64,000 bases of DNA. Source: Octopus sinensis (Eukaryota). Positions 3,660 through 51,539 of the stretch are shown one piece after another. Under the pieces are notes generated by a model. The model was not told the DNA's origin and searched no databases. It was given only the letters and a program-made list of their open reading frames with translations. The stretch lies in the NCBI RefSeq assembly GCF_006345805.1, contig NC_043000.1, positions 93,248,001 to 93,312,000 on the forward strand, written 5' to 3'. The translations under genes were made by a program, and so were the position numbers. Positions within the stretch are counted from its first letter, which is position 1, and each line of letters starts with the position of its first letter.

Positions 3660-4399
3660 GTTTTAAGTTTTTTATTTTGTGATTTAATAAGGATTTTACC
3701 TTATTTTCAAATACTAAACAGTCATCAATAATCAAAAGAATAAAGAAAAATACTCAATACAAAACATATTGTTTTTTTCCAATGGTGTTTACTTCTGAGA
3801 TTATTTTTTGCTTGTTTATTTTGCTTTTTATGTTTACCGAGTTTATAAAAAAAAATTGTTTAGGGTATTATAATTTTGAGCAAAAGAATAATAAATAAAC
3901 AGAAAAAATTAAATAAGATTAAAATAAAATTTACATAAAAATTGAAAAAAATATATCTAGATTATCCTCCAATAAATATAATTATAAAGGAATACATAAA
4001 GAAAATAACAAAAATATTGCAATTTTATTTATTTCATCTGTTTTTTTACTTACATCATCGATGTTTTACTAAGGCTTGCAATCATTTTACTTGTTTTCCA
4101 TTTGTACTATTTTCTCTTTCCTGTTTACTGACTCATTCTTCCTTTAAAATTATATTCTATTTTATTGCTTCTACACTTTTCATTCGCACATTTATTCATT
4201 TGTTCATTAGATTTGACATTCATTAGATTTGTTATTTTCAGTCTTGTGTCTTACTCTATCTTTGCTAAAATATGTACATAACTTCACATTGTTGCATAAC
4301 CATGTCATTTCATCAGACAATATCCAACTTTCTGTCAGTGAAATGAAATCAAATGAGAAGCTACATAATGTTTTCTCAATGTTATATATATATATATAA

Positions 4400-13866: not shown

Positions 13867-13916
13867 ATGTATGTATTCTCACATATTTTTTTCTCTCCTT
13901 GTTTCTTTCTATGTTC

Positions 13917-13952
13917 CTTTCTGAAGAAGAGTGTAGGCTCGAAACGTAAAAG
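13917..13952 (+). ncRNA. Minimal type I hammerhead ribozyme (Penelope-type)
   Basis: CTTT-CTGAAGA-A-GAGT-gtag-GCTC-GAAAC-GTA-AAAG: intact core, stem I CTTT/AAAG and loopless stem III ACGT. Lies in a ~170-bp element (13875-14042) ending at (TA)n. Confidence 0.7.
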
Positions 13953-14039
13953 ACTTTTCAAATTCCTGAGCATTATACTAATACATCTGTTTGTTTTCTA
14001 CACCACCTGTCTTCGTCTTTTGGTTTTTTCATGAATTCT

Positions 14040-24148: not shown

Positions 24149-24392
24149 GAAGGGAAAGAAAGGGGAAAATAGGAAGGCTTCTGACAATGCAGAAAGTTTT
24201 ACAAAACCTTTATATTTCAGACATAAGGGCCCATCATCAGAAGGAAACAGTCTAGGAAATGTCCAGTTACACTGGTTCTCTTACCCAGATTATTTTCTTC
24301 TGAGGATGGACCCTTATGTCTGAAATATAAAGGTTTTATAAAACTCTCTCCATTGTCAAAAGCTTTCTTATTTTCCCTTTTCTTTCTTTTCT
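24149..24392. mobile_element. Inverted-repeat element with two opposed HHR motifs
   Basis: Arms of ~95 bp. Plus 24296-24333 reads TCTT-CTGAGGA-T-GGAC-ccttat-GTCT-GAAAT-ATA-AAGG. Minus 24207-24244 reads CCTT-CTGATGA-T-GGGC-ccttat-GTCT-GAAAT-ATA-AAGG. Confidence 0.7.
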
Positions 24393-31185: not shown

Positions 31186-31395
31186 TGTACATTATTTACA
31201 CTATTTACATTTGACAGATATTTATCCTCATCTTGTTTGTTGTTTACACAATGTTTCAGCTTCATCCTAATGAGAACCCAGGTTCGAAATTTCCCCCAAG
31301 CCACTTGATGAAGGCTGGAGGGTATATCAGCTGAAACGTTGTGTTAACAACAAACAAGATGAGGACAAATATCCGTCAAATGTAAATAATGTACA
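31186..31395. mobile_element. Inverted-repeat Penelope-type pLTR with decayed HHR
   Basis: Arms TGTACATTATTTACA..TTTGACAGATATTTATCCTCATCTTGTTTGTTG..TTTCAGCT and AGCTGAAACGTTGTG..CAACAAACAAGATGAGGACAAATATCCGTCAAATGTAAATAATGTACA. HHR at 31302-31343: CAC-TTGATGA-A-GGCTG...CAGCT-GAAAC-GTT-GTG. Confidence 0.7.
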
Positions 31396-40372: not shown

Positions 40373-41215
40373 TTTATGGTCAGTTTGCCAGAGATATGAG
40401 CGCAAATACAGATACAGAAGGCCAGTGGTTATGAATGTGGAAGTGTGACCTGAAGATAGAAACAGAAGCAGTTATATGCATGGTGCTAAGATAAGCACTG
40501 AGGACAAACTATGTGAAATGCAGAATTGATAACACGACAGAGAACCACAAACATAGAATGTATAGTGAGAGAGGTGAGACAGTGTGACACATTGTTAAGG
40601 AATGCCCAAACTTGGCACAACATAAATACAAAAAAGTGATATGGCAAAGTGGTAAGAGTGATTCTTTGGGAGCTCTGTGGAAATTATGGTATAGAAAGAT
40701 CAAAGATGTGCCATGAATAAATCCCAGAAGGAATTACTGAGAATGATAATTGCAAAATCTTGTGAGATGCAAAGATTCAGTGTAACCATCAGATTAAACA
40801 TCAGAAACCTGAGATTGTTGTGACAAAAAGAAAAAAAAAAACCTTGCTTAATAATCAACATAGCATGGTCCTGGTGACAATAAGAATCAAAGAAAAATAA
40901 GAAAAATTGAAGAACTATGATGATTTGGAGAAGGAAATATGCAGTTTGTGGGCGATGAAAGGAATGGATATGATACCAGTAATAATTGGCGTGCTAGGAA
41001 GCATCAGCACTCAGCTACCAACATGACTCAAGAAGATTGGTACAGATGTAAAGATAGAACACCTACAAAAATCATCATTGCTTAGAACTGCAAAAGTTCT
41101 CGGCAGGGTTCTTGAAGCATGACTAGTTAACAAGTGTGACCTTAGTCTACTGGCTGTAGACAGGTGTCACTTTCCAACATACCCAGTAAAATAAGCTGTG
41201 AGTTTTCATGAAATA
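40371..41215 (+). pseudogene. Decayed R4/Dong-like 3' fragment
   Basis: YGQFARD..LKIETEAVIC..ALRTNYVK..ETV*HIVKEC.. through IPVIIGVLG..LQKSSLLRTAKVLGRVLEA*, with stops and frameshifts. (AAT)n on both sides. Confidence 0.8.
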
Positions 41216-41240
41216 ACAACAACAACAATAATAATGATAG

Positions 41241-41281
<41 letters not shown>

Positions 41282-41283
41282 GG

Positions 41284-42240
41284 ATGCTAAAGCTCGTGGA
41301 AAATCACGAGAGACGAAAGAAGCTTCATTCTATCATAAAGGAAAGCAAAAAATTTGCTATTGATCTCGTGCAGGATACCCAAACTGAACAACCCGATGGA
41401 AGTACGGCAACTATTGTTGCAAAGAAGGTGAAAATGATGGCAATGAAGAAAGCGCATGAGCAATTGGCTGATAGGTGGGAGGAGAAACCTCTGCACGGTA
41501 AATATGTGACCCGCAGCAAACAAGCTGATGTTGACCAGAAGCAAACCCATCAGTGGCTACGGAGCTCAGGGCTAAAAGCAGAGAGCGAAGGTTTCATCCT
41601 GGCTGCTCAAGATCAAAGCCTATTAACCCGGAACTACCAGGCCAATGTGATGAAAAATGGAGCAGACCCAAAATGCCGATTCTGCAACGACATGATTGAA
41701 ACAGTGGACCACCTAATCTCTGGATGTAAAGTCTTAGCACCAGTGGAGTATAAATTAAGACATGACAGAGTTGGCCAATATCTCCACTGGCTAATAAGTC
41801 GGCATTACAATATCAAAACTTCCGACAAGTGGTATAATCACCACCCTGAGGCTGTAACTGAAGGAGAAAATGTAACCATTCTGTGGGACTTTCCAGTACA
41901 TACAGACCGAACCATCAAGGCCAATAAACCAGATATTGTTGTGAAAGACCAAAACAATAAAGTTTGCTTATTGATCGACATGAGCATACCCTGTGATCAT
42001 AATATCTCAGCGAAAGAGTTTGACAAGCTCAGAAAATATAAAGACCTACTCATTGAAATTGAGAAAATGTGGCATCTCAAGGCGGTTACAATACCAGTGA
42101 TCGTAGGAGCACTAGGAATGATCAAGAAGGGAACCGAAAATTATATGAGAATGATCCCTGGCTTACCATCCCTGCAAGAAGTGCAAAAGATTGTCTTAAC
42201 TGGTACATCACACGTATTGAGAAGAGCATTGTCGATGTGA
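41284..42240 (+). CDS. R4/Dong-clade non-LTR retrotransposon ORF, C-terminal part (CCHC zinc knuckle + restriction-like PD-(D/E)xK endonuclease); 5'-truncated, no RT core
   Basis: Open 318-aa frame containing KPLHG, AAQDQSLLTRNY, CRFC-x7-H-x4-C, RHDRV, KPDIVVKD..LIDMSIP..KEFDKLRKY, PVIVGALG and QKIVLTGTSHVLRR. Begins directly after (AAT)n; its 3' UTR ends in an A-run plus (AAT)n at ~42410. Confidence 0.92.
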   Translation: MLKLVENHERRKKLHSIIKESKKFAIDLVQDTQTEQPDGSTATIVAKKVKMMAMKKAHEQLADRWEEKPLHGKYVTRSKQADVDQKQTHQWLRSSGLKAESEGFILAAQDQSLLTRNYQANVMKNGADPKCRFCNDMIETVDHLISGCKVLAPVEYKLRHDRVGQYLHWLISRHYNIKTSDKWYNHHPEAVTEGENVTILWDFPVHTDRTIKANKPDIVVKDQNNKVCLLIDMSIPCDHNISAKEFDKLRKYKDLLIEIEKMWHLKAVTIPVIVGALGMIKKGTENYMRMIPGLPSLQEVQKIVLTGTSHVLRRALSM

Positions 42241-44766: not shown

Positions 44767-45380
44767 GTTATTATAATTGTCATCGTCATCATCATCATAC
44801 TACTTTATCATTATTATTGTCTTCATCATCATCATCATCATCATCATCATTACTATTATTATTATTATTATTATTATATTATTATTATTATTAATATCAT
44901 CATCATCATTGTCTTTGTTGTCGTCGTCATCATCATCATTGTCGTCGTTGTTGTCATCATCATCATCAGCAGCAGCAGTTGTTGTAGTAGTAGCAGCAGC
45001 AGTAACAAGGCAGTAAGCAAACAGAATTATTAGCACACCAGACAAAATGCTGTGTAGCCTTTCAACCTTTCAGTTTAATGAAATAAGTACCAGTTGCACT
45101 ACTGGGGTCAATGTTCCCAATTAATCCATACTCATTAAAATTCCTGGCCTTGAGATGTATTTATGAAATACTTTCATCATTTAATTCCACTGTGTAATGC
45201 TGGAGAAAATAATGAGTGTGTTCTAGTGGCTGTGTGTAAGTAGCTTGCTTACCAACCACATGGTTTGGGGTTCAGTCCCACTGTGTGGCACCTTGGGCAA
45301 GTATCTTCTACTATAGCCTCAGGTCAACCAAAGCCTTGTGAGTGGATTTGGTAGACGGAAACTGAAAGAAGCCCATCGTA

Positions 45381-45449
<69 letters not shown>

Positions 45450-45453
<4 letters not shown>

Positions 45454-45878
45454 AAACAAGTCAAAAATAGAAAATGCTAAAATAATTTTATAGTGAACAT
45501 TTCAGTACCGGTTTCGGTCATTTTGAGACCTTTTCAACTGTAACGATTAAATAATTAAATTTAGAAAAATTAGAAGAAAAGTTTTTTTAAAAGAATATTT
45601 CTATAGTAGTGTTCAGATTTAAGTGGCATTCTGCCTTTCTCTGACTCCCTTGTTTGCACTTGTGCAAAGTGCAAACAAGGGAGTCAGAGAAAGGCAGAAT
45701 GCCACTTAAATCTGAACACTACTATAGAAATATTCTTTTAAAAAAACTTTTCTTCTAATTTTTCTAAATTTAATTATTTAATCGTTACAGTTGAAAAGGT
45801 CTCAAAATGACCGAAACCGGTACTGAAATGTTCACTATAAAATTATTTTAGCATTTTCTATTTTTGACTTGTTTTTTC
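45450..45878. mobile_element. Perfect 429-bp palindrome (212-bp arms, 5-nt loop) carrying two opposed HHRs
   Basis: 45450-45661 is the reverse complement of 45667-45878. HHR CAG-TTGAAAA-GGTC-tcaaaat-GACC-GAAAC-CG-GTA-CTG lies at 45788-45825 (+) and 45503-45540 (-). Confidence 0.9.
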
Positions 45879-45922
45879 ATATATATCAACTCGTGTGTTC
45901 CTTTTCACCCTTATACATATAT

Positions 45923-45983
<61 letters not shown>

Positions 45984-46161
45984 CATATATATATATATAT
46001 CTACTTGTTCCCTACTTATTATTCCTTTAACCCTTCTCTTCCTATTATCTAACTTTGACGTCAATTCTACTAACGTTTTTTTTTAAACACTTATTATCGT
46101 TTTGTTTACCATGTAGGCAGTCATCGCAATTATTGTTTTGTCTTGTTGTTGAGAGAGGCTC

Positions 46162-46254
46162 CCTTTCTTTCCTGATGAGAAGATTGCATCTTGCACCGTT
46201 TATTCCTTTGGAATAAAACCATGTTGTCTTCGAAACATATGTCGAGAGTAAAGG
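46162..46254 (+). ncRNA. Type I hammerhead ribozyme with extended stem II
   Basis: CCTTTCTTTC-CTGATGA-GAAGA-[loop including hairpin TTTATTCC-ttt-GGAATAAA]-TCTTC-GAAAC-ATAT-GTC-GAGAG(T)AAAGG. All core nucleotides are canonical, with a GUC site at 46241-46243. Confidence 0.8.
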
Positions 46255-46455
46255 AATTTTGTTAACATCTTCGTTCAACTCCATTTATTTATTTATTCAT
46301 ATATAACACGCAAATTTCTGCACATGAACCCGGAGTTTCTACCCTTGGACAGGGCGCATCAACCGTGTTTCTGACGGGAATTTGCTACCCTGGTATCGGT
46401 TCATCGAATTTTCCATGTTGATGGTAAACATAGGATAATTCATTCACCTATCGAA

Positions 46456-46510
<55 letters not shown>

Positions 46511-47899
46511 GTGTTTGTGTGTCTGGGTTTCTCCCCCACAACATCGCTTGACAACCGATGTTGGTGTGTTTAAGTCCCCGTAACTTAGCGATTCGGCAAA
46601 AGAGACTGATAGAATAAGTACCAGGCTTACAAAGAATATGTCCTGGGGTCGATTTGCTTGACTAAAGGTGGTGCTCCAGCATGGTCGCAGTCAAATGACT
46701 GAAACAAGTAAAAGAGTAAAAGAGTATCTGTTGTCTGGTGGTAGTTGTTTTGGTTGAGGTAGATGAAAGAGCCATCCTTGATGTACGAAAGGAGAAATTG
46801 GTTGAAGATAGGCACAAAACTCTTGATCTAAATGAATCAATAATGTCTCAGAACTAACCTTGATTTGACTGAGATGCCAAAAGGTACTCGGTTGTGTGTG
46901 ACAGTTGAGAGAAATAAAGGGCCAGGTACTCTATATGTGGTGTCATGAACCCCCTAATGACTTTTCACTAAAAGCAAAGGCTGAAAAAGAGAAGCAGCCA
47001 TCAATGATTCTGATGCTATAACTACAGAAGCAGCACATCTAACAACAGCAGCAAGAACAGAAGCAACTCTAAAAAGAACAGGGACAAAGATACTTTTCAA
47101 AAACTACAGCAGAAATATAGCTCCTCCATTACAAATAAAGGAATCCTTTCCCACAACACCTGTCCACAAAAACACAAGCACACATGCACATACACTCATA
47201 ACACCCACCTTCAAACAGAATCCTAATCTTTTTGTAAGATGTTTTAATGTGTTGCTTCTGTGATTATGACATCAGTAAGAAGAAATTAATAAAGGAGAAT
47301 GCAACATTTCCATAATAGACGTAGAAAGTCTGTTTACTAATGTTCCAATGGCAGAAACAATTACAAATCATATTACTTCAGGTACATGAATAACCAGAAA
47401 TAAACAATTCAAAATTCCAGTTTAATATATTGAAGAAATAAGGCAGTGAGTTGGCAGAAACATTAGCACGCCAGGCAAAATGCTTAGCGCTAGTTCACCT
47501 GTCGCTATGTTCTGAGTTCAAATTCCGCTGAGGTCAACTTTGCCTTTCATCCTTTTGGGGTTGACAAATTAAGTGCTAGTTGCATAATGGGGTCGATCCA
47601 ATTGACTGCCCCCTTCCCCAAAAATTTCGGGCCTTGTGCCTAGAACAGAAAAGAATATATTACATTTCAGCAAGGCAGCGAGCTAGCATACCAGGTAAAA
47701 TGCTCAGCAGTATTTCGTCTGTCTTTATACTCTGAGTTCAAATTCTGCCAAGGTCGACTTTGCTTTTCCTCCTTTTGAGATCAATAAATTAAGTAACTGT
47801 TGCATACTGGGGTTGATCTAATCAACTGACCCCTCCCCACTCCCCCAAAATTTATAGCCTTGTGCTTTGAGTAGAAAAGAATATACTGAAGAAATTATT

Positions 47900-48064
47900 A
47901 TAGGTGTAGGAGTGGCTGTGTGGTAAGTAGTTGCTTATGAACCACATGGTTCCAGGTTCAGTCCCACTGTGTGGCACCTTGGGCAAGTGTCTTCTACTAT
48001 AGCCTCGGGCCAACCAAAGCCATGTGAGTGGATTTGGTAGACGGAAACTGAAAGAAGCCCGTCG

Positions 48065-48152
<88 letters not shown>

Positions 48153-48380
48153 GTGTGTGTGTATACATTTGTGTGTCTGTGTTTGTCCCCACCAACATCA
48201 CTTAACAACCGATGCTGGTGTGTTTACATCCCCGTAACTTAGTGGTTCGGCAAAAGATACCAATAGAATAAGTACTAGGCTTACAAAAAATAAGTCCTGG
48301 GGTCGATTTGCTCAACTAAAGGTGGTACTCCAGCATGGCCACAGTGAAATGACTGAAACAAGTAAAAGAGAAAAAAGAGA
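47900..48380 (+). mobile_element. SINE family A
   Basis: Full-length copy within the Penelope remnant. Confidence 0.85.
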
Positions 48381-50273: not shown

Positions 50274-51539
50274 CATGGGTTGGACAAAATAATGGAAACA
50301 ACTAGCATCATAGCATCATAATTTTGAAATATCTATAAAACTGTCAAAAGCTTGTTTATTTTTATGTTTTTTTTATATATTATTAGTGTTGCTTAATATG
50401 TTTTGCTAAAGTTGCTGTTTCTTTTCAGATATCATCAGGAAAAGTTAATTAAAATTCATTAAAATGACAGATAAATCAGACTTTCAAAGAGGTCAAATTG
50501 TTGGTGCTCATATGGCAGGTGCTAGTGTAATGAAAACAGCTGAAATGTTTGGTGTATCAAGAAGTACTGTCTAAAAAGTAATGACAGCCTTTGAGAAAGA
50601 GAAAAAAACTTCCTCATTGAGATAAAACTCCAGAAGAAAACCAAAACTTTCAGATAGGGACTGTCGAAATCTTATGCAAATTGTTAGAAAGGATCATAAA
50701 AGTACTGCTCCCAAAATTACTACAGAGCTTAGTGACCATATCAAGAACATAGTTTCCCAAAAACAGTTCGCCGGGAGCTGCACAAAACCAGATTTTATAG
50801 GAGGGCTGCAATCAGAAAACCACTGCTTTCAAAAACAAATGTTGGAAAGTGTTTAGAGTGGAGTAAAAACCTACAGAATTGGTTCCTAGAGCAGTGAAAG
50901 AATGTTATTTTCTCGAACAAGTCATCCTTTTCCTTATTTCTGATGACCAGCCAAGTATATGTGTGGAGACAGCCAAAAGAAGCATTTGACCTAGACTGCC
51001 TTCTTCCAACTGTTAAACATGGAGGAGGATCTGGGGTGGGGGCTATATCTTGGAAATCTGCTGGCCCAATGGTTTCTCTCCATGGCAGAATTAACAGTCA
51101 AAACTACTTATGCATTTTATCTGATCAAATTCATCCTATGGTTGCAGAACTGTTTCCAGATGGAAATGCAATCTTTCAGGATGATAACACCCCAATTCAC
51201 ACAGATAAAGTTGTTATGGAATGGCATGAGGAACATTCTAATGAAGTTGAACATCTTATTTGGCCACCACAGTCCCCAGATCTCAATATTATTGAACATT
51301 TATGGTGCATTTTACAAGAACAATAAGGAGTCTATATCCTCCACCATCATCACTACAAGAACTGGAGACTGTTTTAGCTGAAGAATGGACAAAAATTCCT
51401 TTGGAAACAATTCAAACTTTGTACGAGTCCAAACCTCGTAGAATTCAAGCTGTAATTACTGCCAAAGGAGGTCCTACCCCATATTAAAACAAATTTGTTT
51501 GAAATTTTAAGGTGTTTCCATTATTTTGTCCAACCCCTG
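50274..51539 (+). mobile_element. Full-length Tc1 (DD34E-type) transposon with decayed transposase, inserted in a SINE A linker
   Basis: TIRs CATGGGTTGGACAAAATAATGGAAACA and TGTTTCCATTATTTTGTCCAACCCCTG|TA. The ORF runs from 50464 (MTDKSDFQRGQIVGA) to 51487 (GGPTPY*) with stops and frameshifts, and contains FQDDNTPIH and WPPQSPDLNIIEHLW. Host SINE A (-) at ~50075-51712. Confidence 0.92.

Follow-up and report, generated by a model that had tools for sequence, protein, structure and literature searches.

The perfect palindrome described here is a single insertion of a Penelope-like retroelement (PLE) into a (TA)n microsatellite, in which two short copies of the terminal repeat lie head to head. 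Both arms represent the 3′ terminal repeat (pLTR) of a young element that encodes a reverse transcriptase (RT) and a GIY-YIG endonuclease (EN). The tails, lengths and 5′ ends of related copies suggest that the hairpin was probably formed by twin priming, i.e. by cDNA synthesis from both target strands on one RNA.

The initial annotation of the window (the whole 64,000-nt stretch of DNA that was analysed) had reported a perfect palindrome with 212-bp arms and a 5-nt loop. This structure was found, and its exact reverse-complement arms (45442-45661 and 45667-45886) reach 220 bp each when the TA edge (8 nt, ATATATAT) is counted. The mini-hairpin noted at the palindrome centre was also seen as described. 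The annotation had overlooked the 33-nt tail of the right arm, the presence of a single sense hammerhead per strand and the identity of the sequence as a Penelope-like element end. The palindrome sits between two (TA)n runs (Table 1), and it is the sole non-microsatellite inverted repeat in the window with arms of ≥18 bp and a spacer of ≤30 nt, the runners-up (≤29 bp) being (TA)n runs.

Table 1. Features of the insertion (window positions; ref, element positions in the natural copy L032:3618-8022)
Feature	Position	Strand	Remarks
(TA)n target microsatellite, left flank	45379..45449	.	
Left arm, 5′-truncated tail-less pLTR copy	45442..45664	-	ref 4372 back to 4150; blastn 100% over 223 nt
Mirror hammerhead motif	45503-45540	-	U3 45537, A8 45532, predicted cut 45506
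Head-to-head junction, loop GTGCA (5 nt)	45662..45666	.	GTG belongs to the element copy in the left arm; CA is additional
Right arm, 5′-truncated pLTR copy	45667..45886	+	ref 4153-4372; tail continues to ref 4405
Minimal type I hammerhead motif	45788-45825	+	U3 45791, A8 45796, predicted cut after GUA at 45822
33-nt "tail", right arm only	45887..45919	+	absent from left arm
(TA)n target microsatellite, right flank	45912..46000	.	

Perfect palindromes are a known artefact of long-read sequencing, and the assembly contains many 1-nt homopolymer indels. A fold-back chimera would, however, mirror the flanks, whereas here the flanks differ, the symmetry stops at the end of the element and the tail is one-sided. 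The same one-sidedness was seen in 30 of 32 sister hairpins, whose centres differ, and an origin in the assembly is therefore very unlikely. A check of about 3% of one raw-read run gave two reads on the stretch and none in the arms, and the contig pieces obtained from DNA runs did not include one across the whole stretch (the Logan contigs are family-level fragments). A "skip" of 45351-46256 observed in three DNA runs was considered as an empty allele and rejected, because it joins two other repeats.

SINE-like dispersed repeats flank the insertion (45197-45430, 46480-46721 and 47883-48375); one of them ends in a tail that forms the left (TA)n target.

Sister copies extend the arm sequence into a 4.4-kb unit. 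In the parent element (L032, L048) we identified an RVT_1 domain (E 3.5e-8) and a GIY-YIG domain (E 3.8e-4; 21.1 bits, just below the Pfam cut-off of 22.6), and PF01541 is present in many homologues. The translation of L032 contains a CCHH motif (LIY..C..C...YIG, then H and H) and a Zn-finger-like CX4CX2C linker (CGRPNCGIC) between RT and EN. In the part of Craig et al. 2021 available to us (PMC8557442) the CCHH motif is given as a feature of EN+ PLEs, while a CX2-5CxxC linker in this position, together with (TA)n targeting, is given for the Neptune and Nematis clades; the linker and the TA flanks of the octopus family fit either clade. Further hallmarks of EN+ PLEs were found in the family: partial tandems of pLTRs, inverted 5′-truncated copies, a tail of 30-40 bp at one end and a hammerhead motif in the pLTR. 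The canonical single ORF was not, since an ORF1 (411 aa) precedes the RT-EN frame; according to the legend to Fig. 1 of PMC8557442, some PLE types may have an ORF1 set apart by a frameshift, and we therefore did not take this departure as excluding membership. A PDB sequence search with the RT-EN protein gave no matches, and a protein search of the octopus genome for divergent families returned near-identical copies only. The insertion in the window is without any ORF and consists of two pLTR stubs. Penelope-like RT-EN elements were also present in contigs filed as bacterial genomes in GTDB (L306-L312), where they most likely represent contamination by DNA of animal hosts.

The host genome (2.7 Gb) is microsatellite-rich, and the copies of the family share a common sequence upstream and end downstream in (TA)n, with or without the 33-nt extension, which in full elements is the sequence leading on towards the ORF1 start. 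A search with the arm gave 834 first-look candidates, of which 40 were scored, and a full exact-match score was recorded for 41 of the 46 listed matches (the two arms of the window included). The identity of the arms had been read as a sign of very recent insertion; with at least 41 matches at full exact-match score, it reveals the youth of the family and dates the locus itself weakly.

Hairpin centres of the head-to-head type were detected by pattern at 40 loci genome-wide (control 0). These centres mostly differ from one another, so that the mirror structure must arise anew with every insertion; it does not spread as a unit. A MITE, a non-autonomous DNA transposon or another mobile palindromic unit was rejected on these grounds and because the tail is on one arm only. 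A non-LTR retrozyme was rejected as well. Such retrozymes are described in the accessible part of bioRxiv 10.64898/2026.07.22.740005 as short units without coding capacity that derive from PLEs and carry type I hammerheads, and they form head-to-tail tandem arrays; the window, in contrast, holds no tandem array at the locus but a head-to-head pair, whose centre varies by copy. At one site (L034/L092, G000:C1:20693686-20694634) two near-identical pLTR hairpins with different centres adjoin each other.

In order to obtain unbiased counts, we sorted the 1,880 motif copies by coordinate and took the first 100, which gave 74 loci (arms truncated inside the motif are left out of this sample, except as partners). 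Exactly one tail was present in 31 of the 34 inverted pairs, two tails in 2 and no tail in 1 (p 4e-7 vs 0.5). Of the 31 one-tail pairs, 12 had a longer tailed arm and 10 a longer tail-less arm, and in 9 the lengths agreed to within 20 nt; where the tail-less arm was longer, it was so by >20 nt and often by kilobases. The hairpin centres behaved similarly: among the 32 examined of the 40, one tail occurred in 30, with the tailed arm longer in 14, the tail-less arm longer in 12 and equal arms in 4. Unpaired arms were mostly tail-less (38/45), which indicates that both 3′ ends arise on their own. In full-length pairs (n=24, full over the scored segment) the exact common-variant haplotype was shared by the two arms in 17, compared with 1.9 expected (maximum 9 in 5,000 draws).

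The 5′ ends of the arms are clustered. Those falling in ref 4131-4160 account for 26 of 113 (0.87 per nt, vs 0.06 and 0.08 on either side), and the pile-up has an edge at ref 4132-4134. When one arm of a pair ended in ref 4131-4160, so did its partner in 6 of 7 cases (p 3e-4). As judged from these DNA ends, the edge likely marks the start of the RNA (ref ~4134). An extra, cap-derived G was looked for at solo 5′ ends and none was seen. RNA-guess contigs from four runs cover the pLTR and the ORFs of the family as a whole; such contigs show no starts, strand or single locus.

Twin priming is known from LINE-1 elements: both nicked strands prime cDNA on one RNA, and the inverted 5′ part is joined by microhomology. 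The two LINE-1 cDNAs copy different parts of the RNA, whereas those of the octopus element would copy the identical part, with a palindrome as the result. The GIY-YIG endonuclease would nick both (TA)n target strands, and each nick would prime reverse transcription at an internal position of the RNA, namely the ATATATAT site (ref 4372) or a site 33 nt further 3′ (ref 4405), to give one tail-less and one tailed arm. Both cDNAs would then run off near the 5′ end of the RNA (ref ~4133-4156), which would make the arms nearly equal in length, and their 3′ ends would be joined by microhomology; in the window, this may have involved a 4-nt snap-back of the left cDNA followed by a 2-nt join. Snap-back inserts like that of the window are also present in L056 and L469. 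Twin priming with run-off at the RNA 5′ end would thus explain the counts for single tails, arm lengths, haplotypes and 5′ ends, and we consider it the probable origin of the hairpin, although 3 of the 34 pairs break the one-tail rule.

The main competing explanation is that the second arm is a fold-back product, in which the cDNA started at the tail primes itself, is copied back to the ATATATAT site and joins (TA)n, with central deletions blurring the junction. We regard this as possible, with a probability well below that of twin priming. The central mini-hairpin and the snap-back inserts at several centres agree with it, as do breakpoints lying within 20 nt of each other in 10 of 34 pairs (including L120 and L130, far from the hotspot), and it too predicts one tail per pair. 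The sharing of haplotypes by both arms is expected just as much under fold-back or gene conversion, and template slippage, combined with a fold-back of the tailed arm that needs no homology, is a second way to interpret the junction in the window. A fold-back copy, however, should never be longer than the tailed cDNA, nor should it gain a tail when made from a tail-less one, and the tail-less arm was the longer in 10 of the 31 one-tail pairs and in 12 of the 30 one-tail hairpins; a later asymmetric deletion in the centre could have scrambled which arm is longer and would bring these lengths back into line with fold-back. The excess of tail-less copies among the unpaired arms also shows that tail-less priming occurs alone. 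Taken together, these counts favour twin priming. The initial annotation had proposed fold-back or self-primed synthesis for the palindrome, and this part-way holds: a local snap-back explains the centre, while the one-sided tail and the fact that either arm may be longer speak against such an origin of the whole arms. Self-priming on an antisense transcript, the published hypothesis for head-to-head palindromic junctions of rotifer Penelope elements (Arkhipova et al. 2013, PMC3846280, in the part available), appears improbable. It leaves the strict one-tail rule and the sharp 5′-end edge unexplained, and an in vitro template spanning the pLTR-ORF junction gave internal initiation at the tail sites, according to the accessible text of Frangieh et al. 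2024 (PMC11167929).

The locus might instead be maintained as a functional host module under selection, for example a source of siRNA or a ribozyme switch. Its transcript would form a perfect 212-bp duplex (-343 kcal/mol for the whole-palindrome fold, with 212 pairs), and the RNA-guess contigs do cover the family pLTR. The arm is, however, letter-identical to dozens of copies, and there are 39 other hairpin centres. No host exon was identified in the vicinity, and the ORFs of the window with clear retroelement or transposon Pfam hits are remnants. Moreover, each strand of the locus carries one sense hammerhead only, which in a read-through transcript would be tied up by pairing with its antisense arm. 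A selected module is thus very unlikely, and with its sense hammerhead locked in duplex the locus is likely a dead passenger, i.e. ordinary retroelement debris.

Each arm contains the hammerhead motif CAG-TTGAAAA-GGTC/GACC-GAAA-CCGG-TA-CTG with a U3-A8 core, as originally annotated. We found all parts of a minimal type I hammerhead: core boxes with a 3-8 pair, helices I and II (the latter of 4 bp), an NUH cut site and a palindromic helix III (ACCGGT, the dimer type). The prediction that a canonical search would miss this motif was borne out by Rfam, which gave no hits in the window at gathering thresholds.

Exact matching in the genome gave 1,880 copies with U3-A8, 6 with C3-A8, 2 with U3-G8 and none with C3-G8 (reversed-pattern controls 0), which indicates that the core is an inherited trait of the family. 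The double change had been attributed to selection; its compensatory nature is supported, while selection at the locus is not, given that the same core was inherited across 1,880 copies. Independent variation of positions 3 and 8, suggested earlier as a test, is uninformative within the family, in which the few single mutants are what normal decay would give. U3-A8 is also retained by two older copies with 78-82% identity, one of which has the outer pair of helix II changed on both sides from G-C to A-U. Three of the closest relatives (L314, L315 and L316, RT 45-46% identical) have C3-G8 with an identical GAAA-CCGG-U helix III. These comparisons support a U3-A8 compensation dating to the origin of the family. 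Among 87 related public loci, a descriptor with palindromic helix III detected 18 C3-G8 and 3 U3-A8 motifs in sense, 3 C3-G8 motifs in antisense and no mixed cores; the control gave 0 in three shuffles, some of the matches repeat one family and one U3-A8 match is AT-rich and doubtful.

An older subfamily (hundreds among 775 matches; G000 C1-C2, L037:5265-5463, L039:4783-5064) has kept U3-A8; its loop II is shorter, and most of the listed rows show A-U as the outer pair of helix II. Three further minimal hammerhead-like motifs occur on the plus strand of the window (13915-13955, 24294-24335 and 31299-31345), two with C3-G8 and one with U3-G8, and are likely pLTR remnants of other Penelope families.

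Folding of the monomer placed the active-like structure at +0.9 kcal/mol, vs an MFE of -6.6 kcal/mol, and the MFE structure of a 254-nt arm contained no hammerhead fold. Two copies co-folded through ACCGGU, with both helices II formed, at -21.1 kcal/mol. The hammerhead would thus be an inherited cargo of the terminal repeat that needs a second copy to complete helix III.

Nearly all copies run through the predicted cut site, which suggests that uncut RNA is the main template. In a 3-nt window at this site we found 14 matches, of which 10 were junctions and the rest point or indel variants; the 10 junctions represent 9 events (two belong to one mirrored locus), one of the 9 being an internal deletion. 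Two upstream control windows gave junctions in 0 of 22 and 2 of 30 examined matches (2 further rows lie outside this count), a difference with p 0.001, or 0.009 when the 2 further rows are counted. A downstream control window gave 4 of 30 (8 further rows outside the count), and relative to this window the enrichment was not significant (9 vs 4, p 0.13). A second sample comprised the first 100 of the 775 matches (contigs C1-C2), with truncations classified by script and by eye; 81 rows were set aside because they continued upstream (mostly copies belonging to the older subfamily), showed internal deletions or an insertion, or ended upstream of 4286. The remaining 19 truncations fell in ref 4286-4306 (4), 4307-4311 (7) and 4312-4322 (8), with p 0.002 for the step.

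This 5′-end step at the cut site is a weak hint of ribozyme cleavage in vivo; the tests involve small numbers and were chosen post hoc, and the AT-rich sequence downstream favours (TA)n microhomology. Stalling of the RT at the foot of helix I would give an identical step. Internal deletions that rejoin at 4307-4309 were observed in L277 and in both arms of L425, and in L151 one rejoins likewise within 2 nt of the cut site; such deletions may reflect template jumps that started at the end of a cleaved RNA. Read jointly, the approximately 1,900 copies might record integration by an RT-endonuclease dimer with two priming sites 33 nt apart and run-off, as well as the first in vivo footprint of U3-A8 hammerhead cleavage, a combination that we put forward tentatively.

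Upstream of helix I, the window has features resembling a 3′ splice site (45745-45790), namely a pyrimidine tract, a CTAA(A)T-like site and a TTACAG that ends exactly at the helix I 5′ strand. The accessible part of Cervera & de la Pena 2014 (PMC4209133) describes an intron of D. virilis Penelope that ends at helix I. An older octopus copy (L039) has a donor-like GTGAGT where the young family has GGGAGT. An intron ending at helix I was not supported, since the contigs of four RNA-guess runs, which could miss such a joint, contained no splice joint.

The ORF1 of the parent element (L032:3683-4918) overlaps the RT-EN frame (L032:4855-7209) by 61 nt in the -1 register, and the overlap contains an in-phase slippery site, T TTT TTA (L032:4879-4885). 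This heptamer is kept in 13 of 15 distinct copies that cover the site (1 variant, 1 unread), and RNA-guess contigs pass it gap-free. In related public loci an in-phase heptamer was present in 9 of 13 examined (T TTT TTA in 6, T TTT TTG in 3); the relatives concerned are L306, L313-L316, L321-L323 and L352, with RT identities of 33-46% where listed. ORF1 gave no match in a Pfam search, and homologues of it were detected in 8 related loci (E < 1e-6). No stable structure was predicted downstream of the slippery site in the family of the window element. We consider T TTT TTA a candidate for a conserved programmed -1 ribosomal frameshift site; a frameshift-separated ORF1 has probably already been described for some clade, judging from the legend cited above.

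Much of what the locus displays has been published, to judge from the parts of the sources that were available: U3-A8 minimal hammerheads, head-to-head pLTRs, one-sided tails and (TA)n targets. In PMC4209133, U3-A8 replaces C3-G8 in the hammerheads of the Cercyon PLE of Schistosoma mansoni (approximately 1,300 hits). Motifs are also found there in pairs, 100-700 bp from each other and in opposite orientation; a dimer is required, and activity in vitro is low. The portion at hand reports no U3-A8 cleavage assay. As described there, the Cercyon motif resembles that of the octopus family in being a type I hammerhead in the pLTR with short helix I, palindromic dimer helix III and U3-A8. The octopus motif differs in being nearly invariant, as a consequence of the youth of the family, and in having a helix II of 4 bp, no extra base after A9 and U3-A8 fixed family-wide.

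Insertions of EN+ PLEs similar to that in the window, with inverted pLTRs, a palindromic junction, a one-sided tail, a microsatellite target and a CX4CX2C linker, are on record in the consulted parts of PMC8557442 (inverted 5′-truncated copies, frequently with a tail of 30-40 bp at one end, and a (TA)n bias) and PMC3846280 (palindromic junctions). The one-tail rule, the arm symmetry and the 5′ hotspot, qualitative in those parts, are counted here in the octopus.

The closest biochemical parallel is PAc, the Poseidon element of Anolis, which according to the available text of PMC11167929 cuts and extends both target strands in vitro, is predicted to act as a dimer and starts reverse transcription at two internal sites that bracket the tail, all of which speaks for twin priming. 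The same text describes hammerhead cleavage that is assisted by the protein, and reports that RNA-seq ends were not seen at the cut site. PAc and the octopus family have in common two RT starts at the tail, an AT-rich target and the predominant use of uncleaved RNA as template, whereas PAc has a C3-G8 core and one ORF, and the octopus element U3-A8 and a separate ORF1. Head-to-head palindromes are not derived from the two start sites in that text. The formation of inverted repeats and tails, and cutting in vivo by minimal hammerheads, are named as open questions in the accessible parts of PMC8557442, PMC4209133 and PMC11167929.

A literature search, which covered few subscription journals, found the U3-A8 variant in PMC4209133 only. 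Among the papers listed, none combined "twin priming" with "pLTR", and two combined "twin priming" with "Penelope"; octopus and Neptune occurred together in PMC8557442 only. Supplementary figures of the published work may already hold these points. What is new is thus the family statistics relevant to the mechanism, and not the locus or the core.

With its young age, many intact RT-EN frames, one-tail rule and sharp 5′ edge, the family makes the choice between twin priming and fold-back directly testable, and it supplies a natural U3-A8 ribozyme candidate for assay. The dozens of perfect hairpins of ~430-470 bp are potential sources of dsRNA for silencing of the family. The dsRNA (ADAR or Dicer substrate) and the cruciform suggested in the initial annotation would apply to dozens of sister loci just as well.

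Remnants of other transposable elements were also observed in the window. A 342-aa open frame on the plus strand (41212-42240) resembles the C-terminal part of a non-LTR retrotransposon, with a weak zf-RVT match (E 5e-4) and what we take to be a restriction-like endonuclease motif, and a remnant of a Tc1/mariner-type DDE_3 transposase (E 1.7e-11) lies at 50898-51323 on the same strand.
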